A stretch of 64,000 nt of DNA, taken from positions 192,001-256,000 of IMG/VR virus record IMGVR_UViG_3300037722_000745, one strand, 5' to 3'. Under the pieces are notes generated by a model. It searched no databases and had not been told where the DNA came from. It saw only the letters and a program-made list of their open reading frames with translations. Position 1 is the stretch's first letter, and the number at the start of each line of letters is the position of its first letter. A program made the translations under genes and the position numbers. This DNA comes from a virus (lineage: Duplodnaviria > Caudoviricetes). This document shows positions 22,853 to 62,900 of this stretch, piece after piece.

Positions 22853-22949
22853 GGAGGGTGACCCGCGGTTGGACCGCTCAAGGGCTCTACATCCTGATCG
22901 GGCCCGGTGTTGCAGCTCCGGTGGGGTTCGAATCCCTCACCCTCCGCCA
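22853..22949 (+). tRNA. Allo-tRNA-like (8/4) tRNA with CUA (amber) anticodon
   Basis: 8-bp acceptor GGAGGGTG/CACCCTCC, 4-bp T stem, long variable arm, loop CTCTACA (CTA at 22887-22889), G73-CCA. Confidence 0.75.
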
Positions 22950-25704: not shown

Positions 25705-26179
25705 GTCTCGCCGCAGCGAGCAATCAGGATCGGTCCCCAGCGGCTGATTCCTGCCGGAGGCAGTCACGCCTACTCCGCGTCTCGCCGCAGCGAGCAATCA
25801 GGATCGGTCCCCAGCTGATCATCACGATTCAGCTGCCGGCATCCGCTTCAAGTCTCGCCGCAGCGAGCAATCAGGATCGGTCCCCAGGACGTCCTCGAGA
25901 TCAACGGCAACGAGTACGACGCGAGGTCTCGCCGCAGCGAGCAATCAGGATCGGTCCCCAGCTACGGCGTCCGACGTGATGAGCGTGGCCGCGAGAACGT
26001 CTCGCCGCAGCGAGCAATCAGGATCGGTCCCCAGCAGCGTGCGAGCTGCGGATCGGTGGCTGCAGCCTTGTGTCTCGCCGCAGCGAGCAATCAGGATCGG
26101 TCCCCAGCTGCAAAAACTGGACTTCGCGTTATATGCCGTCCTCGTCTCGCCGCAGCGAGCAATCAGGATCGGTCCCCAG
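25705..26179 (-). CRISPR. Type V (Cas12j) CRISPR array: 7 repeats, 6 spacers (36-38 nt)
   Basis: Identical 36-nt repeat CTGGGGACCGATCCTGATTGCTCGCTGCGGCGAGAC with 3' hairpin CTCGC/GCGAG, 128 bp downstream of cas12j. Confidence 0.98.
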
Positions 26180-26307: not shown

Positions 26308-28464
26308 TCACTCAGCCGCGAGAGACTCCAGGGGGGTAGACGCCACTGAGGCTCTCGCGGCTTTCCGGAGGGATACACCAGTGATGGCTACCATCGCGAT
26401 ATTATAGGCAGCCACATCGATGTCCGCGTTCCCACGGTACCCGCAACAAACACATATGAAAGCTTCACGATTGACTCGGTCTCGATTGGCCTTGTCACAG
26501 TGCCCGCACTCGGGGCACGTCCGTGATGTATTATACGGATCCACTTTGATCACCCGATAGCCTCGGTGCACAGCCAAGTCGCAGAACGCTCCGAAGAGAG
26601 CGTCCATGAGCCACCGCCCTTCCTGTTTGGCTGCGAAGAAACCACCCCACCCTGACTTACGGCTCCCCTTCCCGCCTCTACGGAAGCTGTGATGAAGGTC
26701 CTCGACCGCTACGATGACCTTTCCGCACTGAGCCCGCTTCTCGGCTGTCCTAATGACGTAGTTGACGCAGTGTCGCGACAACTCCTTCTTGCGGATGGAT
26801 AGCTGGTGGTACTTCGAGCTGTTCCTTTCAGCCTCCCATTTGGCTTCGTTCAGTGCCTTGCGGGTCTCGGATGTCAGTTGAGGCCGAAAATGCTGAGCCC
26901 AGTTCACGTCCCATCTCTTGCGAATCTCGGTCTTCCGCTTTTTCCCTTTACCCTTGAAGAAGGGGAACATGTAGAGCGTGTCGTCCACACCACGTTCCTT
27001 CGCCAAGTCAGATAGAATAGAGCTTCGACTGTTCACCTTGTCCCAGGGTACTTCATCCACCGATAGCCCGAGATGGCCACACACCTGCATCTTGGCTTGC
27101 TCTGGTCCGAAGGTATCCAACGCCAACACCTCCGCTTGTTGTTCGGCGGTCAGAGAGCGTACGGCTGCTAACCGCAAATTCTCTTGGTGCTTGTCATACG
27201 CCTTACGAAACCGGAAGAAGTCCTCTACAGTCTGCTCCGGTAACGTAAAAGCCTGCAACCGTTCTACGCACTTCCCTGGACGAATCCGTAGCGCATTCGC
27301 AGCGATCAAGTTGTTGACGCCTAGATCGACACCTACGAGGCTAAACGTCTCCGTGGTGTCATCTAGCATCTTCGACACATAGGATCCCTTCACAACCTTG
27401 GCCTTGACGACCGGCACGACCCCTTGCTTATAGATCAACGTGGCGGTGTAACGTACCGGCTTGCCCGGCTTCTTCACTACACTCAACGTGGGGTCATTCG
27501 TCACCAGATTCAGAAGACTCTCAATCGTCACCGGCACCGATCGGTCTAACAATTTGCGGTACTGTGTGTTGCGGAGAAGCCCTCGGAGATCGAGAAGTGC
27601 CCAGTCATCAGCTACCCTAACGACCGCCAACAACATGTTGTCGTCGATCGCCCCACCACGTGAGCGTGCCCAAGAAGCCCGTTTCCGACGGTGCTTCTTA
27701 ACGGAAAGATTTTCTCGATCCCATGGGGGTACATACCCCGGTTGACCTTCAGGTATCTCTAGCCGATCTACACCACAAGCGGCGATGGGTGTTGACGGAT
27801 CTCGGCTATAACCCGTCACCCCAGGAATGGACCCAGGCACATAGGGCTTCAACTTCATATGCTGGTACCCAAACACGCTACAGTTGATCCCCGGGCGGTG
27901 CCGCAGATGACCTGTCTCATCGAGGGCCGTTTCAGGTTCGTCGAGTGTTAGAAGAGGTAGGCCACGTTCTGCCCGATGCTCGTTCCGCTGTTCAATCTTT
28001 GCTACCTTTTTGCTGTTGCGATTCTCAACCTTCTTGAGAACCCCCTCGTAGGTGGCCCGAGCGTTTTGGAAAATCAGGTTGAGACCTTGGACATTGAAGT
28101 ACCCGTCCGTGTCCACCCGCGTAGCCTTAAGCCAGGCCCTAAGCCCTGCTTCAGACTTCCCAGGATCCGTAGCCTTGAACTCCTCGTAACTCTGAGCATA
28201 GACGTACTTCTGGATCACCACCGACGCTTTGTAGATCGGCCACTCCTCCAAAGGCCGACTCATCGCCACGATGTTACACTTCACCGGAGGTTTGAAATTA
28301 GGCTGTGTTGTGCCCCCCTTTCCTTCAAGAAAGGCCACAGCAGCGCCTTCGCCTTTCGACTTGAGGATCCTACCAGCCTGCCTCGAGTCATGTTTTTTGA
28401 ACCGCAGCCCAGGGAAGGACTTCTTACAGAGGGCGACGAGTGGGGTTTCCTTTTTGTCTGGCAC
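26308..28464 (-). CDS. cas12j: Cas12j (CasPhi) type V effector, 718 aa
   Basis: Split RuvC (VGVDLG, VAVEDL, NADIDVAAYNIA), Zn ribbon CPECGHC..C..C, and NVQGLNLIFQNAR and C-terminal LAAE segments recalled from CasPhi-1; adjacent array; no cas1/cas2 in the window. Confidence 0.93.
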   Translation of the reverse strand: MPDKKETPLVALCKKSFPGLRFKKHDSRQAGRILKSKGEGAAVAFLEGKGGTTQPNFKPPVKCNIVAMSRPLEEWPIYKASVVIQKYVYAQSYEEFKATDPGKSEAGLRAWLKATRVDTDGYFNVQGLNLIFQNARATYEGVLKKVENRNSKKVAKIEQRNEHRAERGLPLLTLDEPETALDETGHLRHRPGINCSVFGYQHMKLKPYVPGSIPGVTGYSRDPSTPIAACGVDRLEIPEGQPGYVPPWDRENLSVKKHRRKRASWARSRGGAIDDNMLLAVVRVADDWALLDLRGLLRNTQYRKLLDRSVPVTIESLLNLVTNDPTLSVVKKPGKPVRYTATLIYKQGVVPVVKAKVVKGSYVSKMLDDTTETFSLVGVDLGVNNLIAANALRIRPGKCVERLQAFTLPEQTVEDFFRFRKAYDKHQENLRLAAVRSLTAEQQAEVLALDTFGPEQAKMQVCGHLGLSVDEVPWDKVNSRSSILSDLAKERGVDDTLYMFPFFKGKGKKRKTEIRKRWDVNWAQHFRPQLTSETRKALNEAKWEAERNSSKYHQLSIRKKELSRHCVNYVIRTAEKRAQCGKVIVAVEDLHHSFRRGGKGSRKSGWGGFFAAKQEGRWLMDALFGAFCDLAVHRGYRVIKVDPYNTSRTCPECGHCDKANRDRVNREAFICVCCGYRGNADIDVAAYNIAMVAITGVSLRKAARASVASTPLESLAAE

Positions 28465-32975: not shown

Positions 32976-32994
32976 GTCTCGCCGCAGCGAGCAA
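32976..32994 (-). repeat. Solitary Cas12j-family repeat (3' 19 nt)
   Basis: gtctcgccgcagcgagcaa abutting a 15-bp tandem duplication (32944-32973). Confidence 0.85.
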
Positions 32995-34717: not shown

Positions 34718-34786
34718 CTCGGGTGCAGGGACTCGAACCCCGATAAGCGGCACCAAAAACCGCTGTACCGCGGAGCTGGGTCTATT
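34718..34786 (-). pseudogene. Degenerate tRNA-Gln(TTG), 5' acceptor strand lost
   Basis: Anticodon and T arms intact. Confidence 0.55.
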
Positions 34787-36468: not shown

Positions 36469-36496
36469 AAGCTATCTCTAGCGGAACGGCCTTCAG

Positions 36497-36544
36497 TGTC
36501 AGGACGTGGGATCGAACCACGCTGGCTTCCAAACAAGTCCTGAC
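36497..36544 (-). other. tRNA-like minihelix (acceptor plus T arm, no D arm) fused to a repeat
   Basis: GTCAGGA...CGTGG-TTCGATC-CCACG-TCCTGAC-A. Confidence 0.6.
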
Positions 36545-36563
36545 GTCTCGCCGCAGCGAGCAA
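36545..36563 (-). repeat. Solitary Cas12j-family repeat (3' 19 nt)
   Basis: gtctcgccgcagcgagcaa. Confidence 0.85.
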
Positions 36564-36592
36564 AGCAAATAGTTGTCTGGGGTGCAGACTAG

Positions 36593-49442: not shown

Positions 49443-50051
49443 GCCTTGGCTGTAGGCAAGAATTTAACGAAGCTCAGACTGTAACTCTTGAGGGGTCGAA
49501 ATTTTGCGCATAACACCATAGAAAAGCCATAAATGGCTTAGCAGCTTACCTTGAAGGCTGGCACCCAGGACATCGAACTCGAAGCTTATGGGGAGCAACC
49601 CCACATGGAAAGAGTGTTCGGGATCCTCTGCGCATGCTCGGGCCAATCCTTGAACTTGTCGCCGTAGTTCTCTCGACACAACCGAGTGATCGCGATGTGA
49701 GAACTGAGACACACAGACATGATCTTACGCGTCTCCCTGGCACTCAATCCAGAAGCCGTAGGCCCAGACCTCCACAGAGCCGACAACTCCTCCTCACTAA
49801 GAGGAGCTTCCAGACTCCCTCCCAAATCGGACAAGGAAGCGTCAATATCCGCTGTAGAGGCCATCTCTCGGGTTTTTGATTGTGTTTCTGATGGGCGGAA
49901 TATACACCGCAGGCAGCATGCCCCCGAGCGCCCAAAGCGGAAGCCGGAGAACTCGAATCCCAAACGACCCCGAGAGGCCGTTCCCACCGCTTTCCAAGCG
50001 GGTCCAGTCCCTAACTGGTTCAGCTTCCAAGGGGAGCCTGTTGAGGGAATC

Positions 50052-50158
50052 GTCTCGCCGCAGCGAGCAATGAGTGCATGACTACACCAAGCCAACAAGC
50101 GCTGATGGAAGCAGGCCAGTTGCGTGACTACGTAGTGGACCTGTCGGGAGTTGAACCC
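50052..50158 (-). repeat. 107-bp duplication (copy A) ending in a 20-nt Cas12j-family half repeat
   Basis: 2 mismatches versus 51439-51545. Confidence 0.9.
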
Positions 50159-50212
50159 CGATCCCGGTTACCACCGTACCAAGGTGGTGCTCTGCCACTG
50201 AGCTATACGGGC
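50136..50212 (-). pseudogene. Chimeric tRNA: Thr(GGT) 5' part plus Ala(TGC) 3' end
   Basis: GCCCGTA does not pair with CAGGTCC; T arm and 3' end match 51520-51545. Confidence 0.7.
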
Positions 50213-50547
50213 GTTGAACCGAAAGACAACCCTCTCTCTAGCTTGCCTCCTAGACTCCATATCGCGTAAGGCATGCCTCAGAATTTGAAGGTTGACGATC
50301 GCATCGTAAAGCTCCCGCTCCTTCGCTCCGCTGTCTATAAGCCTCTCTAGTTTATCGATCTCTCGTCGGATCCGATTCCGATCTTGCAAACGCTTAGGGA
50401 GCCGCAAGCCTGTGGTCCGATCCTGACGCTCAACCTTCCTAAGTTGCTGCTCGATATAGTCCACCTCTTTTGGGGTCAAGGATCGAGGCAGTAGTCCAGG
50501 CCGAGGGAAAGTCACCTCAAAAGGACGGTCCGGTTTGGGTACCGGCA

Positions 50548-51054
50548 TCAGATCTGACCTAACACCTTTCGAACCAACCGCATGAACGTCAGTCCAGCGA
50601 GTTCAGGATCTGTGCTGAATGCGGTCTCCGTGATAGACCGTTTGAAGTCAGCTCCGCTCAAGGGTTTGTGAGGCACATACCCGAACGAAAGTAACGGAAG
50701 ACCGCCCCGGATTGACAACATCAACGTGAAGGTCTCCAAAGCGGGTCGAGTGGAGAAGTAGTAGTACAGCTTCATCCGCTGCTGGGTAGCATTCATGTAG
50801 AAACGATCGCCATGGAACTTCCGCCTGAATGCTGAAAGGGCCTTGGGTAAGAGGATCTCGATAGACAACTTGGCCGCATCAAAGACCTCTTGCGCAGACG
50901 TTGGCACCCCGACTTCAGGAGGACCCCAACGAGCTTGCCGGGCCATCCTCTCGGACCACGGAACGACCCATGACGGGATTTCCGGCTGCCAGTCCCCAAG
51001 GGCTACCTGGTAACCCCACCTGGCCGCCACGCGCTTTGCAAGAGTACCCATCAC
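50548..51054 (-). CDS. Hypothetical protein
   Basis: 168-aa ORF with N-terminal AKRVAARW. Confidence 0.6.
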   Translation of the reverse strand: MMGTLAKRVAARWGYQVALGDWQPEIPSWVVPWSERMARQARWGPPEVGVPTSAQEVFDAAKLSIEILLPKALSAFRRKFHGDRFYMNATQQRMKLYYYFSTRPALETFTLMLSIRGGLPLLSFGYVPHKPLSGADFKRSITETAFSTDPELAGLTFMRLVRKVLGQI

Positions 51055-51084
51055 CTCGTGCAGTGTGATGGGTAGATTAGTGAG

Positions 51085-51158
51085 GCTACCTGACGGGACT
51101 CGAACCCGCTCTCACCGGACCCACAATCCGGCCGCCATCCTATCGGCGCTCAGGCAGC
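51085..51158 (-). tRNA. tRNA-His(GTG)
   Basis: G-1:C73, loop TT-GTG-GG. Confidence 0.8.
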
Positions 51159-51258
51159 AGAAGTATCACAACGGTCCCGGGCCGGGTGCGACGAGCTAGC
51201 CACACGCGCCGAGTAGCTAGCTCGGACGCGCTGCGTTCTGTGCCCCGTTGTGACACGG

Positions 51259-51341
51259 TGCGAACGAGAGGAGTCGAACCTCCACGACCTCGCGATCAGC
51301 TGGGTTTGAGCCAGCCGCGTCTGCCATTCCGCCACGTTCGC
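51259..51341 (-). tRNA. tRNA-Leu(CAA)
   Basis: Class II cloverleaf. Confidence 0.9.
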
Positions 51342-51355
51342 GTGAGCACTACTCA

Positions 51356-51391
51356 GTCTCGCTCTTAGGGGAGGCGAGCTTCCTTTGATCC
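51356..51391 (-). repeat. Solitary family-2 repeat variant
   Basis: gtctcgctcttaggggaggcgagcttcctttgatcc; stem CTCGC/GCGAG. Confidence 0.78.
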
Positions 51392-51438
51392 CATACAGGA
51401 AATCCTTCTTGCAAGCTACGGTGCTGGAGACAGGAGTC

Positions 51439-51545
51439 GTCTCGCCGCAGCGAGCAATGAGTGTATGACTACACCAAGCCAACAAGCGCTGATGGAAGCA
51501 GGCCAGTTGCGTGACTACGTGGTGGACCTGTCGGGAGTTGAACCC
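51439..51545 (-). repeat. 107-bp duplication (copy B) ending in a 20-nt Cas12j-family half repeat
   Basis: See copy A. Confidence 0.9.
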
Positions 51546-51591
51546 GCAAACTCTCCTTGCAAGGGAGAGCCCTGACCCGTCAGACAAGCCC
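51520..51591 (-). tRNA. tRNA-Ala(TGC)
   Basis: G3:U70, CCA, atypical D arm. Confidence 0.75.
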
Positions 51592-51596
51592 ATTTA

Positions 51597-51676
51597 GGTC
51601 CGAGGCGAATTGTCGACTCCGCGTCTCCAGCTTCCGTACGCAATAGCTGGCGCTCTAACACTGAGCTACTCGAACC
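51597..51676 (-). other. tRNA-like element with 12-nt anticodon loop and degenerate T loop
   Basis: Acceptor GGTTCGAG/CTCGGACC; stem CCAGCT/AGCTGG around ATTGCGTACGGA. Confidence 0.5.
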
Positions 51677-51678
51677 AG

Positions 51679-51750
51679 CGGAGCCGAGGGGACTCGAACC
51701 CCCCTCACTGGCGTGACAAGCCAGCCGCCTCACCCGATGCGTACGGCTCC
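51679..51750 (-). tRNA. tRNA-Asp(GTC)
   Basis: Cloverleaf, G73. Confidence 0.85.
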
Positions 51751-51754
51751 GTAA

Positions 51755-52009
51755 GTCCCACTCTTGATGGAGGTGGGCTTCCGTTGTGACCGTGCGGATT
51801 TCGGAGATGACGCTGAAGCCGTCATCGGTCCCACTCTTGATGGAGGTGGGCTTCCGTTGTGACTTCGCTCCGATCGCAATCCCGCAGGATCGCGACCAGC
51901 CGTCCCACTCTTGATGGAGGTGGGCTTCCGTTGCTGCCAGGCAGGACGGCTCGAAGTGGCTAAGATGATGTTGGTCCCACTCTTGATGGAGGTGGGCTTC
52001 CGTTGCTGC
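51755..52009 (-). CRISPR. Second CRISPR array (family 2): 4 repeats, 3 spacers (36-38 nt), no adjacent cas gene
   Basis: 36-nt repeat GTCAC/GCAGC-AACGGAAGCCCACCTCCATCAAGAGTGGGAC; leader-like region 52010-52160. Confidence 0.95.
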
Positions 52010-52356
52010 AGTGCGCTCAAAAAGACCTAAAATTTCCAAAGAGCTGAGAGCCGGATTGCGAGAGCCTCTGCAAACTCCCGCTAAATCCGACTCCATGGAG
52101 AGTACTACACTGTTCACAGAGAGCGCAAGACCCTAAATTCATTGTCTTGCGAGCGATCCCCGGGCTCCAGGCGTCACCGAGGCTCTCGCGTTCCGATGCC
52201 GTCCAACAAGGAAACTCCACGTCCCGGCGAAGAGTTGAGAGCATGGGCAGTACCGTGCCCACAAGGGCCAGTCCTCTCGCTCAACCCCGCGAAGTCGAGC
52301 TGTTTCAGGAATGTGACACGGGTTTTGGTTGATGCTGGCCAAACATGACTACCCAG

Positions 52357-52432
52357 TGGAGCCGGCGGGGATCGAACCCGCCGCAAAGCCGCATTGCAAG
52401 TGCAGCTCGCCCCCGCCAACCGATACGGCTGA
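52357..52432 (-). pseudogene. Degenerate tRNA-Ala(TGC)
   Basis: T arm and anticodon intact, 5' end eroded. Confidence 0.55.
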
Positions 52433-52440
52433 GGGGTATC

Positions 52441-52833
52441 TCACCGAAGAGATGACGGCTCATAAAGTGTCAATAGCTCCTTTGCCCAATCTACGAGGTC
52501 CGACACCCTCGCGCCGGTAGGTTGCGGACTTCGCCACAACTCCAGGTTGCACGGTCTGTTGTCGTCCCTAACCCCGTTCTTGTGGTGTACCGTCTCACCC
52601 GGCAAGAGATAGCGGCCAAGGACTTCCTCCATCACAAGGATGTGCTCAAACACGTACGGACCGCTTGTAGCCCTAGGGTGCAGCGGAACTCGCCGCATCA
52701 CGTATCGAATCGGATCGCCGCACCCAAGGCAGGGTACCTTTGGGAGAGATCGCCGCCGACACATCGGGCATTTCCGATGTCTGCTACTTGGTGTGAAAAG
52801 TCTGCAACACGAGCTACAAGTTTTGACAGCCAT
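52441..52833 (-). CDS. HNH homing endonuclease
   Basis: YVFEHILVMEEVLGRYL..VHHKNGVRDDNRPCNLELW. Confidence 0.85.
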   Translation of the reverse strand: MAVKTCSSCCRLFTPSSRHRKCPMCRRRSLPKVPCLGCGDPIRYVMRRVPLHPRATSGPYVFEHILVMEEVLGRYLLPGETVHHKNGVRDDNRPCNLELWRSPQPTGARVSDLVDWAKELLTLYEPSSLR

Positions 52834-52896
52834 TAGTCACCGAGACAGTCTCGGCGTGCAGGGTACACCACGTGCAGGTTGCCATCTTCGTACCCT

Positions 52897-53295
52897 TGGA
52901 CTCGGTGGGAATCGAACCCACGTCCTAGAAAGCTATCGAACAGCGTCTACGTGCGTAGCGTGACTTCGGACTCGGTTAAGGTCGTGCCCATGCCTCACGC
53001 CGGCTTCCACCTGGGGCGTGACTGGTTTTCCAGTCTTGCCTCCACCACCGATCTAGCGACCTAAGGTCTTGCGACCCGTTTCCCACAGCCAATCGGACTC
53101 TGTGGTGCAGCCCTGCGTTTACTTACGCCGCTCGAAATCGAAGCAGGGAATCTACCCCGAGCGACGGCTCAGGCAGCCTGAGCAAAGCCGTTATAGTTGG
53201 CTTTTCTTGTTTGGTCGGCTTGATAACCCGGCCTGCTGACCAACCGGGGCACGCTGCTGCTCGAATTACCTCCCAGTCGAAACCTTTACGAGCCC
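52897..53295 (-). ncRNA. ssrA: tmRNA
   Basis: GGGCTCG/CGAGTCC-A with G3:U70, GGTTTCGAC 5' motif, T arm; tag frame ends ANYNGFAQAA-stop. Confidence 0.92.
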
Positions 53296-53322
53296 TAAAT
53301 CTGTCATCGCATACACCAAAAG

Positions 53323-53399
53323 TCTGGAGCCCCTTCCCGGAATCGAACCGAGTTATCTGGTTTACAAGACCAGCGCATCACCAACTATGCTTAAGGGGC
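53323..53399 (-). tRNA. tRNA-Thr(TGT)
   Basis: Cloverleaf, CCA. Confidence 0.9.
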
Positions 53400-53625
53400 T
53401 TAGCTACGCCAGCAGAAAACGCTAGAGTTCTCACACCGGTCCGCACTCTAGCAGCGGCCCTACATACCCCGGGCCGCCAGCCTAGCTTGGCAGCCCACCA
53501 GGGGCCTGGTGTCAGGCGGGACGCCGTCCGAATACCTCAGAGCTTTTGACCGGGCTAGAGAGCCCAAGATGAGGGTCATCGTTCAGCATCGACCGGTGGA
53601 GAAAATGGTAGCGACGGAGGGAGTC

Positions 53626-53647
53626 GTCTCGCCTCAGCGAGCAATCA
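53626..53647 (-). repeat. Solitary Cas12j-family repeat (3' 22 nt) fused to a tRNA 3' end
   Basis: gtctcgcctcagcgagcaatca; followed on the minus strand by GACTCCCTCCGTCGCTACCA. Confidence 0.88.
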
Positions 53648-54216: not shown

Positions 54217-54236
54217 TTGTTTGGTTGCGGGAGCCG

Positions 54237-54264
54237 GTCTCGCTCTTTCAGGTGGCGAGCTACC
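54237..54264 (-). repeat. Degenerate solitary family-2 repeat between duplicated tRNA-fMet 3' ends
   Basis: 24/28 to the 54941 variant; 14-bp direct repeat at 54224-54237 and 54281-54294. Confidence 0.72.
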
Positions 54265-54281
54265 ACGGTTTTTCAAACCAG

Positions 54282-54353
54282 TTGCGGGAGCCGGAATCGA
54301 ACCGACGAGGCTTGGGTTATGAGCCCGAGTTGAGGGCCAACACTCTTCCCGCG
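54282..54353 (-). tRNA. Initiator tRNA-fMet(CAT)
   Basis: C1xA72 mismatch, GGG/CCC anticodon stem. Confidence 0.85.
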
Positions 54354-54431: not shown

Positions 54432-54472
54432 TGGTGGGTCCTCTCGGGATCGAACCGAGTTCTCCGATTTTT
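54432..54472 (-). pseudogene. tRNA 3' half (from the anticodon loop to CCA) fused to a repeat
   Basis: AAAAATCGG-AGAA-CTCGG-TTCGATC-CCGAG-AGGACCC-ACCA. Confidence 0.75.
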
Positions 54473-54508
54473 GTCTCACTCTTGTAGGGGGTGAGCTTCC
54501 CTTACTCC
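54473..54508 (-). repeat. Solitary family-2 repeat variant
   Basis: gtctcactcttgtagggggtgagcttccctt; stem CTCAC/GTGAG. Confidence 0.78.
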
Positions 54509-54895: not shown

Positions 54896-54940
54896 AGATT
54901 TATCTCGCTCTTCCGCCAGCCAAGGCATACACGCATTGCT

Positions 54941-54976
54941 GTCTCGCTCTTGAAGGAGGCGAGCTTCCTTTGCGAG
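54941..54976 (-). repeat. Solitary family-2 repeat variant
   Basis: gtctcgctcttgaaggaggcgagcttcctttgcgag, nearly identical to the copy inside the E2-like gene. Confidence 0.85.
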
Positions 54977-59973: not shown

Positions 59974-62900
59974 TCATTCCTCCGGGACCAGTTCTTCGAG
60001 ACGAGATGAGATGTCCGCGAGGTCGTCATCAAATGCTTTGTCTCCCGACTTCGTGCGGAGTGCCTTCAGGCGAGCTTCGGCCAGGGCATGGAAGTCTGGA
60101 TCCTTCTCGATTCCGACGTACTGACAGCCCGCCTGAATAGCCGCTACACAGGTTGTCCCTGTTCCGCAGTACGGATCGAGCGTTGTCCCACCTCGGGGCG
60201 TAACGAGCTTGACCAACCATTCCATGAGGGAGAGAGATTTCATCGTGGGGTGAGGGTTCTTCGCTCCCTTCATCCAACCTTCACGCTCTTGCTTGCTGAC
60301 CTTCGCTGTGTAGAAGAATGGAGCCTCAGGCTCGAACTGACCGAAGTAGCGTGAAGCCCCTCCTCCCTCACCCACTACCGATGATGGTTTTGACCCATCA
60401 GCAGTTGTGACTGCCCCGTGGTAGCCCATACCCTTTTGACATTCACCGGAGAACCATCCCGGGGCTCTAAAACCGCTCTGCTTGTCCAACGCCTTGACCG
60501 GACACCCCTCGACACACTCGTAGACGGGGATCTCCTCCATCCCATCAGCATCACCTTGCGGCTCTGACGTGTAAGAGTGTCCGGCCCCATCACCGAACGG
60601 CTTCATCCCGTCATCGAAGCGGTTGATGACGGGGGCCTTGACCCGCTTCGAACCTACGACCTCACACTCGGTCGAATGAATCATCAGAGTGTTAGCTGGC
60701 CAACGCCCATGATTGTGGACCTCCGTCTCCACACCCCCGACCATCCCCTTCACCATCGTGTTGCGAGCTTTGCCCGGCGAACTGCTGTTGGTCCGCGTCG
60801 TGTGGCCGATCCGCGTCGCATCGATATTCAGCCCGCCCGTACCGTGCTTCAGAACGTTCTGAGCAACAGTAGCCTCCGAAAGAGGCTTACGGAACACTAA
60901 TATCGGTTCCCACGAGGGTTTAAGAGCCGTGCCAAGGCCATCAAATTGTGAAGCGGCTTCGGAGTCCACCCCTGCCTTCAACACCGCTTTCTTCACATTT
61001 AAACTCTTGGGAAAACCAGAGTTACCTGTGATGAACACCCTACCATTGCGTCGAGCTACGAACGCCCCAGTCTCCACGCGAACACACCACACCTCCCCGT
61101 CATAGTCTTTCAGATGGGTCGCATGGAGATGTCTGGACTGTAATTCCGTAGTCCGATTGTCGTGCAACGAAACACAACGCTTCTTCGCGTTGTCCCGACC
61201 TTGCCACCCGATCATGTGGGCCAGGACCTGAAACCACTCACGGTCAACACCGTCTTTTTGGTAGAATTGCTTCTGGCCTACAGATCCATCCCCGTCCATA
61301 GCTGCGGATAGAAACGCCCTCTTCTCATCAAGGGTCATCCGCCACAACAGGTCGTAAGTTGGATGTTTGCCGGGCAAGATCTCTCGAACACTCAGAGCCG
61401 GTTCGCCCGAGAAGAACCACGTGTATTCTGTGTACTCCCGGCCCTTGTATGTGCGTACCCTCTCGTACTTTTTGAAGTCGGGAGCGAACTTCTGAGTCAA
61501 CCGATCAATCTCAACCACATGGTCGGGATTGACACTGCTCTGGTAAATGCGAACACCCGTCCAGGAGTTATCGAATCCGCCCTCAGTCCAGATCCACGCC
61601 AAGAAAGCAGCGTAGTCTTCCCCGCCAATCCCCGCCCCATCGTGGTACCCAGCCAATGGTAGCTTGATTGCTTGCCACCGATTGATCTCAGCAGCCTCCA
61701 TCGGAACCCACTCTTCCTCGAACCACTTGCGACGGGTTTTTGCTACCTGTCTACGGATAGCGTGTCGCTTGAATACGCGATGGTTAGGGGTCAGTAGCTG
61801 ATCGGTGTTGTCGTTACGAAAGCACACCATCGACCCCTGGTAAGGGGCTCGGAACACTTCTAAGACAGGACGTAATCCAATCCCCTCTGTGGCCGGGTCC
61901 CACGTGGCTACCGACAAACCTTCTTTGAGTTGGTCCGGTCCCACCCACCCGTGCTCAGTGAGAATCTCACTATCCTCACTGAGACACCCGTAAACCCACT
62001 GGAACACCTGGACGCTGAACTGCGCTGCTACGGTATCTCGACACTCAAAACCCGCGAATCGCAGTCCCATCGAGATTAAGTCGAACGTGCGGGTGGAGCC
62101 AAAGCTCAAGAGGTGCCCGCCGGGCTTGAGGGCGCGGTAGCATTCCCTCCATACGGCAACGGGCGGGATTTCCCAGGTATGACCCATAAAATCTTTATGT
62201 GTCTTGTGTGGTGAATGGAAACGATCCAACAGAACCCTTGGCACCGCAACGTTCAACGTAATTGCCCCGCCTGCGGGCAACCCTACCTTGCAAGTCAGAA
62301 AGCGCTTGAGAAGCGTCGTCAGACTACCTGCTCCAGACGCTGTTCCTATACACTCCGAGGAAGTCAGAAGAAGTCGAGCGTCGGCTTGGTCTGCGGGGTC
62401 TGCAAAAACGAGTTCACCAGAAACCCGAGCCACATCAAGGGTAAGCACGGCGCAAACTTCTGTAGCCCTATCTGTCACTATAAAGGGCGCTCCCTCGGGC
62501 TCTCCAAACGGATTGTGTACAAGCCGTACAACCATACGAAACAAGGCCGGGCCAACCGAAGTAAAGCAGCCGCACACCTCTACGCATCCGGTAAAGGTTT
62601 GGCTTTCCCGAAGACAGAACTGGCGGTCCTTGAGCGCCTCAAAACCCAAGGAATCAACGTTGTCCACCAGAAGGTTGTCGAACTTCCCGACAGGGCCTAT
62701 GCGGTTGACTTCTTTTTCCCCACTAGAGCCGACGGGGGTTTGATCATCGAATTGGATAACCCCGGACGACATGATCGGGGGTTGATGCACGCTGACTTTG
62801 AACGAGACAAGATCTTGAGCGAATTGGGGTTCGAGGTCGTCCGCTTGTGGGACAACGGACGACCGGAGAATGCTATTCGCGCAGTGCTGGACACCCTTCT

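Follow-up and report, generated by a model that had tools for sequence, protein, structure and literature searches.

The window analysed here, a stretch of 64,000 nucleotides (nt) comprising bases 192001-256000 of the IMG/VR virus record IMGVR_UViG_3300037722_000745 (323,174 bp, estimated 68% complete), belongs to a huge tailed phage (Caudoviricetes) of soil and sediment with a GC content of 56%. It carries a gene for the effector Cas12j (CasPhi), an adjacent array of short palindromic repeats, clustered and regularly interspaced (CRISPR), and, 22-28 kb away from the effector gene, three places at which half of a Cas12j repeat is joined directly to the 3' end of a transfer RNA (tRNA) sequence. 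These three units lie in an island of 43 tRNA genes and a transfer-messenger RNA (tmRNA) gene, all of them on the minus strand between 32.4 and 55.8 kb (ARAGORN, Rfam), and the units share this strand, which is also that of the array. Positions refer to the window unless marked as genome positions. Each unit is made of a repeat-derived handle and a tRNA-derived tail, the latter scored with the position weight matrix (PWM) described below:

50052-50071, minus strand: handle of unit 1, the 3' 20 nt of the repeat, with the hairpin CTCGC-TGCG-GCGAG plus AC (exact match to the 3' half of the array repeat)
50033-50051, minus strand: tail 1, with the layout of tRNA nt 57-75, GATT / CCCTC / AACAGGC / T / CC, that is GATTCCCTCAACAGGCTCC (PWM 12.9 bits)
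51439-51458, minus strand: handle of unit 2, the 3' 20 nt of the repeat (match to the array repeat)
51420-51438, minus strand: tail 2, nt 57-75 of tRNA-Thr(UGU) type, GACT / CCTGT / CTCCAGC / A / CC, that is GACTCCTGTCTCCAGCACC (PWM 10.4 bits; database match)
53626-53647, minus strand: handle of unit 3, the 3' 22 nt of the repeat, with the loop variant TGAG (match to the array repeat)
53606-53625, minus strand: tail 3, nt 57-76 with CCA of an elongator-Met-type tRNA(CAU), GACT / CCCTC / CGTCGCT / A / CCA, that is GACTCCCTCCGTCGCTACCA (PWM 13.7 bits; database matches)

On the minus strand every unit ends in ...ATTGCTCGCTG[C/A]GGCGAGAC and passes at once into its tail. Each handle reproduces exactly the final 20-22 nt of the 36-nt array repeat, the part that contains the hairpin, and the tail follows directly 3' in the position of a guide; unrelated sequence stands in place of the repeat's 5' half, and a repeat of the same family is missing downstream, so that the units are not members of an array. 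Positions 74-75 are CC in all three tails, one of which continues to CCA, and unit 3 has only the handle in common with units 1 and 2. The gene for tRNA-Ser(GGA) starts 4 nt beyond tail 1, at 50028, and unit 2 is followed by about 50 nt, a solitary repeat of a second family and then tRNA-Leu. Upstream of units 2 and 3 no 5' part of a tRNA was found (Rfam in E-value mode; local alignment of the Met 5' part upstream of unit 3). Folding of the units gave z-scores near 0, with no significant structure of their own, and Rfam matches in the stretch at E-values up to 10 were confined to tRNA, tmRNA and weak sub-threshold, mostly tRNA-like hits. The open reading frames neighbouring the units either have no matches or encode an HNH endonuclease, and a sigma-70-like promoter was not detected in 49.8-54.3 kb. 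The gene for the HNH homing endonuclease (52441-52833, minus strand) and the phage tmRNA (52896-53295, tag ANYNGFAQAA) both lie within the tRNA island.

An initial annotation, made from the letters alone, had proposed that three half-repeats are joined to tRNA 3' ends at exactly nt 57. Our scoring analysis confirmed that the tails are genuine tRNA 3' ends in register, and the result is statistically solid. With a PWM for nt 57-73 built on 40 of the phage's own tRNAs, the tails scored 13.7, 12.9 and 10.4 bits against a median of 12.8 for the phage tRNAs (genome-wide p 4e-5 to 1.5e-4), whereas the remaining 81 repeat-adjacent 17-mers, drawn from three repeat families, all scored -0.3 bits or less. 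Hence three of the 84 repeat-adjacent 17-mers are tRNA tails in exact register, where about 0.01 would be expected by chance. The tails had also been quoted exactly; the positions given for them (50052, 51439 and 53626) mark the last base of the repeat and not the first base of the tail, a trivial offset.

The best matches of the tails in the phage genome are likewise tRNA 3' ends in exact register, each preceded by gttc, and they differ at 4-5 of 20 positions, the closest match of tail 1 being the tail of tRNA-Gly(GCC) with 4 mismatches. An intact cognate tRNA is absent for every tail, as had been noted for the window and as now holds for the whole 323 kb record. Outside the phage, the 17-mers of all three tails were searched against 2.9 million IMG/VR contigs, and the bacterial collections were searched with tail 3 (representative genomes of 185,579 species) and tail 2 (241 million metagenome records). 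The 17-mer of tail 3 gave 22 matches, 13 of which, in 13 bacterial genomes, fall on the 3' end of an elongator-Met-type tRNA(CAU), preceded by gggttc and followed by CCA, so that 20 of 20 nt are identical; the other nine are chance matches in unrelated DNA. These exact matches come from Bacilli-like metagenome-assembled genomes of small size, some of them labelled Muribaculaceae at NCBI, yet grouping with genomes of 0.6-3 Mb. For tail 2, 66 of the 67 matches are due to chance and a single one is a tRNA, identical at 19 of 20 positions and preceded by ggttc: tRNA-Thr(UGU), which opens a bacterial thrU-tyrU-glyT-thrT-tufB operon (locus L098), in a groundwater organism that is absent from the sequencing runs containing the phage.

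The handles derive from a CRISPR system encoded in the same window:

26308-28464, minus strand: cas12j gene, 718 aa (phmmer against CasPhi-2, PDB 7lys, E 2.3e-159, residues 9-703)
25705-26179, minus strand: Cas12j CRISPR array of seven 36-nt repeats with 37-38-nt spacers, directly downstream of cas12j

In an alignment of 11 homologues (33-49% identity) residues D380, E588 and D681 are invariant and, from the motif contexts DLGQTN, EDLN and HADL, are taken as the putative RuvC triad. The Cas12j system is real and apparently active, with a nuclease site that appears intact by sequence. The array repeat reads CTGGGGACCGATCCTGATTGCTCGCTGCGGCGAGAC, and its hairpin part occurs in 16 copies in the genome, every one of them on the minus strand: seven in the array, two in a mini-array (2554 and 2624) and seven solitary ones, at genome position 11450 and at 32976, 36545, 43636, 50052, 51439 and 53626 of the window. 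The solitary copies retain just the last 19-23 nt of the repeat, with the hairpin and the GAC end kept and with unrelated 5' halves. Two more repeat families are present. The second, ending in ...AAGAGTGGGAC, forms a 4-repeat array at 51755-52015 and has many solitary copies; the third, of the ...ATTGAAAC type (ending ...CGTAATTGAAAC), forms four arrays outside the window, at genome positions 1-222, 61334-61776, 64596-65500 and 120396-121166. A TTC-flanked self-match in the genome involves this third family and is therefore uninformative about Cas12j. The exact Cas12j repeat was not found in IMG/VR.

Units 1 and 2 belong to a common duplication of 113 nt with 97% identity. The duplicated segment runs from within a T arm (GGGTTC AACT CCCGA CAGGTCC A CCA) through a linker of 61 nt to the handle, plus GA at its end, and two tRNA genes are involved:

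50046-50158, minus strand: copy A of the duplication, with the 3' part of the T arm, the acceptor strand, the 61-nt linker and the handle (repeat search and alignment)
51433-51545, minus strand: copy B, whose first part is the natural 3' end of tRNA-Ala(UGC) (repeat search, alignment and acceptor pairing)
51517-51591, minus strand: tRNA-Ala(UGC), complete with encoded CCA, upstream of unit 2 (ARAGORN; Rfam 24.7 bits; acceptor pairing)
50153-50213, minus strand: 5' part of tRNA-Thr(GGU), nt 1-56, ending in TTC and without a fitting 3' end (ARAGORN and a weak Rfam match, 33.3 bits)

The acceptor of tRNA-Ala pairs at 7 of 7 positions, including the Ala identity pair G3:U70, with the segment from copy B only; the Ala gene thus has all its parts, and tail 2 is left as a surplus tRNA end that has no partner. 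The acceptor 5' strand of tRNA-Thr(GGU), GCCCGTA, finds no pairing partner in the 3' strand that the duplicated segment provides, and the gene looks from its sequence like a pseudogene. After TTC, 101 nt of the duplicated segment break up its T loop, and an extra CGGGAT/CGGGGT repeat stands before the T stem. Like the other Thr tRNAs of the phage, tail 1 has U73 and then CC, and it forms 5 of 7 pairs with the Thr 5' acceptor strand, which is no better than with several other phage tRNAs. Unit 1 is probably secondary, with unit 2 copied into the T loop of the phage tRNA-Thr(GGU) by way of T-loop sequence on both sides, and this copying may have broken the Thr gene and left its displaced end behind as tail 1. 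A third copy of the 45-nt stretch made up of the end of the linker and the handle (GTTGGCTTGGTGTAGTCAYGCACTC plus the half repeat) lies at genome position 11450 (locus L001), where it is followed by non-tRNA sequence; as this 45-nt head also heads units 1 and 2, the same cassette head carries three different guides.

Other repeat-adjacent and tRNA-like sequences occur in the same region. On the minus strand at 54473-54500, a solitary repeat of the second family is fused to a 41-nt 3' half of a tRNA, the whole spanning 54432-54500 (anticodon-stem strand, T arm, AGGACCC, A, CCA) and having no 5' half upstream. At 54217-54353 (minus strand) the second-family repeat at 54237-54264 is followed by CGGCTCCCGCAACCA, a 13-nt exact copy, plus CA completing CCA, of the 3' end of an initiator-type tRNA-Met located 45 nt upstream, and the distance from this repeat to the 5' end of tRNA-Pro(GGG) is exactly 20 nt. 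Such a layout resembles either an insertion that duplicated its target or a guide directed at the Met-Pro junction in its uninterrupted state. The 20 nt at 54921-54940, after the second-family repeat at 54941, are complementary at 15-16 of 20 positions to units 1 and 2 as RNA, at the point where the linker meets the handle (50066-50085 and 51453-51472; AGCAATG.GTGTATG.C), which could reflect an antisense relation or chance, about 0.2 such matches being expected genome-wide. The half repeat ending at 36545 leads into a mini tRNA-like element (36495-36564, minus strand) in which an 8-bp acceptor-like stem (GTCAGGAC/GTCCTGAC) encloses the T arm GTGG-TTCGATC-CCAC. A tRNA at 51597-51675 (minus strand), scored by Rfam at 33.7 bits and missed by ARAGORN, combines a normal D arm with an acceptor stem of 8 bp (GGTTCGAG/CTCGGACC) and an anticodon loop of 14 nt. 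Further T-arm and tail sequences with high scores follow ggttc outside the ARAGORN calls at 22930 (plus strand) and at 34734, 36609 and 46293 (minus strand), and they may be uncalled or degenerate tRNAs.

A search with the single Cas12j sequence found no close relative in IMG/VR or among GenBank phages. Alignment-based searching revealed four distant Cas12j phages with the same repeat architecture. One of them (G407) has an array only. A second (G406, 529 kb) has a solitary half repeat within an island of 45 tRNAs, on the tRNA strand between tRNA-Gln and tRNA-Asn (L109, about 1501-1519), and another directly before a ribosome-binding site (RBS) and start codon (L129). In a third (G409), five half repeats of 21 nt (AATTGCGCTCTGAGGAGCGAC) with spacers of 24-37 nt form an array upstream of cas12j (L106, 5655-5873), and a normal array of 36-nt repeats lies downstream of the gene. 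Half-repeat units thus recur in Cas12j phages, as does their placement in a tRNA island. None of the tRNAs of these relatives matches the tails.

On the basis of their sequence, we tentatively propose that the three sites are stand-alone, delocalised genes for Cas12j CRISPR RNAs (crRNAs), placed in the phage tRNA transcription unit and aimed at tRNA genes, a proposal to which we give slightly less than an even chance. Each unit consists of a handle of 20-22 nt joined directly to a 19-20-nt copy of tRNA (nt 57-75 or 57-76), the copies being of Thr(GGU)-like, Thr(UGU) and elongator-Met type. In type V crRNAs the handle lies 5' and the guide 3', and the protospacer-adjacent motif (PAM) is found 5' of the protospacer on the strand that has the guide sequence. 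A guide beginning at nt 57 would place T54-T55-C56 of the T loop directly 5' of its protospacer on the tRNA-sense strand, where it could serve as a TTC PAM. The initial annotation had pointed to the fit of this trinucleotide with CasPhi PAMs, and TTC does agree with the motif 5'-TBN-3' published for Cas12j (PMC11641405). For Cas12j variants, complementarity over at least 17 PAM-proximal nt is required (PMC11600238); from nt 57 through the CCA end a tRNA offers 20 nt, so that the three guides with their 19-20 nt are above this need. Protospacers with a 5' TBN PAM do exist, since GGTTC precedes the matches to tails 2 and 3 in bacterial tRNA genes. The units themselves present no PAM, because GAC precedes the tail, and the phage's own tRNA genes would escape by virtue of at least 4 mismatches in 20. 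Maturation might proceed by co-transcription with the tRNAs, and RNase P cleavage at tRNA-Ser would give unit 1 a guide of 23 nt. The T-loop PAM mechanism is internally consistent; function of the units as Cas12j guides is unproven, and we infer their transcription, loading into Cas12j and cleavage activity as well as the identity of the targeted tRNA genes, which might be those of the host, prophage attachment (att) sites or rival phages.

An unlikely extension of this proposal is that phage Cas12j, directed by the tRNA-tail guides, cuts host chromosomal tRNA genes of thrU and elongator-Met type at the conserved T loop, while the phage supplies its own 43 tRNAs with mismatched tails, which would amount to host takeover by tRNA replacement; in a variant the units would act as self-copying homing cassettes in rival phages.

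Several observations weigh against a role of the units as guides. Since units 1 and 2 are one duplication, the units are not independent and effectively represent two independent junctions and a copy. None of the four relatives examined has a fusion of a repeat with a tRNA tail, which was seen in this phage only, and further tRNA fragments and degenerate tRNAs crowd the island, with some located next to repeats. Matching tRNA 3' ends preceded by GTTC had been anticipated, and they were found for tails 2 and 3 in bacteria, after GGTTC; in the 2.9 million IMG/VR contigs no tRNA carries any of the three 17-mers. The suggestion that the guides are directed at tRNA genes of a host or of competitors thus gains real bacterial tRNA matches, but neither the tail matches nor IMG/VR nor the relatives' tRNAs yielded a plausible host or rival phage with the targets. 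Among the runs containing the phage sequence there is no RNA run. Finally, Cas1 was not found in the phage record, which leaves the origin of such precise PAM-adjacent junctions unexplained.

The main rival explanation, which we consider rather unlikely though less so than the other alternatives, regards the units as non-functional relics. The tRNA island would be a recombination hotspot in which tRNA genes, CRISPR repeats and homing-endonuclease genes are shuffled, with microhomology recombination or gene conversion at the T loop (GGTTC / GAYTCC) producing junctions that are not under selection. Unit 1 fits this description well, being a clear case of copy-paste with end points in T-loop sequence on both sides that broke tRNA-Thr(GGU), and so do the 41-nt tRNA 3' half after the second-family repeat at 54473, the mini tRNA-like element after the half repeat at 36545, odd pieces resembling tRNA around 53.7-53.9 kb, the HNH endonuclease gene and the failure to find a target organism. 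Shuffling accounts less well for a junction that is identical, from the last base of the repeat to nt 57, with three different tails, given that the microhomology between the repeat end and the T loop amounts to merely 1-3 nt. Tails 2 and 3 are, moreover, undecayed and identical at 19-20 of 20 positions to living tRNA genes, the handle is perfectly kept in every solitary copy despite differing flanks, and no other repeat-adjacent sequence is tRNA-like in the same register.

We regard as improbable the view that the units are CRISPR-guided homing cassettes, a natural drive in which a cassette ending in the handle sits exactly between the PAM TTC and the rest of a phage tRNA gene, the guide extends into the flanking sequence and is directed only at alleles of co-infecting relatives that are not interrupted, and repair from the occupied allele copies the cassette, a logic shared with the TnpB omega-RNA discussed below. 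Phage tRNA islands often contain homing endonucleases, and this one has an HNH gene. At unit 1, nt 1-56 of tRNA-Thr(GGU) stand immediately upstream and a Thr-like tail (U73, CC) downstream, and the second-family solitary repeat at 54237 is flanked by the 13-nt duplicate of the initiator tRNA-Met end, with TTC preceding the intact copy and the tRNA left intact. Units 2 and 3, however, have no 5' tRNA part upstream, and the 5 of 7 pairs of tail 1 with the Thr 5' strand are no better than those with several other tRNAs. About a dozen metagenome runs from soil and sediment contain the phage sequence in essentially identical form. No strain variation was seen in four soil and sediment runs, whose contigs are identical to the window and without informative indels, and an empty-site allele was not found in IMG/VR. 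Cutting by Cas12j is also PAM-distal, which leaves an insertion at the PAM junction unexplained.

An action at the RNA level seems to us similarly improbable. Here Cas12j or another nuclease would be drawn to the solitary handles and would cut or stabilise polycistronic transcripts of tRNA and mRNA, or partial matches of 8-9 nt beside TTC in the phage's own tRNA genes would let Cas12j bind without cutting and so tune transcription. Solitary repeats of two families are indeed scattered through the genome on the transcribed strand, here as in G406, and their position is often 4-20 nt ahead of a tRNA or immediately ahead of an RBS. Regulators that resemble crRNAs and have partial complementarity are known (PMC8730458). 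This explanation leaves the exact register of three tRNA tails unaccounted for, and it does not say why the tails are full-length, perfect ends of foreign tRNAs and not of the phage's own.

Least probable is that the tails are attachment-site cores of the phage or of an inner element, or exons of intron-split tRNAs. Integrases using tRNA genes are accompanied by a copied 3' portion of the tRNA, from the T loop onwards, as in classical tRNA att sites, and the tails are identical to bacterial tRNA 3' ends from T loop to CCA; yet three different tRNA cores, each on a CRISPR handle, are unexpected for att sites, and the 323 kb record (68% complete) contains no match to tyrosine integrase (PF00589) or rve transposase, its sole recombinase, of the small serine type, being some 48 kb away from the nearest unit, which makes this reading unlikely. 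Exons of a split or intron-containing tRNA fail for units 2 and 3, which are without 5' exons, no Rfam intron family was matched, and the acceptor pairing of unit 1 (5 of 7) lends weak and non-specific support for that unit only.

If the proposed guides do function, the virus has found a near-universal combination of PAM and target that is hard to mutate, namely the T-loop TTC with the 20-nt tRNA tail. Large tRNA sets and CRISPR systems, two hallmarks of huge phages, would be joined in one strategy, and about 20 nt of repeat would be a sufficient natural Cas12j handle, which might be useful in minimal guide design. Should the units be relics, they would still record T-loop recombination of CRISPR repeats with tRNA genes in phage tRNA islands.

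Comparison with known systems places the units near several of them. With the CasPhi arrays of Biggiephage type they share the effector family (E 2e-159 to CasPhi-2), the repeat architecture (...ATTGC-hairpin-GAC), the orientation and the logic of the TBN PAM. They differ from these arrays in being single, in lacking both the 5' half of the repeat and a downstream repeat, in being scattered in a tRNA operon and in having putative guides that come from tRNA ends and not from phage genes. Viral mini-arrays and solitary repeat units, known as RNA anti-CRISPRs (Racrs), are solitary CRISPR repeats in virus genomes that are transcribed as small RNAs (PMC11656645, PMC10651486). The units described here are likewise solitary CRISPR repeats in a virus genome; Racrs, however, mimic host repeats, poison host Cas proteins and have no meaningful guide, whereas the phage units copy the repeat of the phage's own Cas12j and carry defined tRNA-derived guide sequences, and they are not RNA anti-CRISPRs in this sense.

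In the omega-RNA of TnpB, encoded at IS200/605 ends, the scaffold ends at the boundary of the element and the guide reads the flank, and the empty site has the target-adjacent motif or PAM directly before the match; Cas12 enzymes are descended from TnpB. The phage units differ in that no transposase accompanies them and in that a matching 5' flank exists only at unit 1 (and at the second-family unit at 54237). In synthetic polycistronic tRNA-guide RNA arrays, an engineering design, guides are set between tRNA genes and released by RNase P and RNase Z. The beginning of tail 1, 23 nt before the 5' end of tRNA-Ser, recalls this layout, with the difference that the phage arrangement is natural and the guide itself is also tRNA sequence.

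The closest precedent is provided by the CRISPR-associated transposons (CASTs) of types V-K and I-F, whose delocalised crRNAs consist of a partial repeat and a tRNA-matching spacer (PMC8730458); the phage units, too, are a partial repeat with a tRNA-matching spacer encoded outside an array. The effectors of CASTs cannot cut, and they recruit Tn7-like transposases and home beside a tRNA gene. Cas12j of the phage, in contrast, keeps its putative RuvC residues, and no rve transposase is encoded in the record. The units are carried by a huge phage, and their three guides correspond to three tRNAs. By analogy, the units would work like the delocalised crRNAs of CASTs without being members of that class, and, if this is true, the principle of the tRNA-matching delocalised crRNA extends from nuclease-dead transposon systems to an active phage nuclease.

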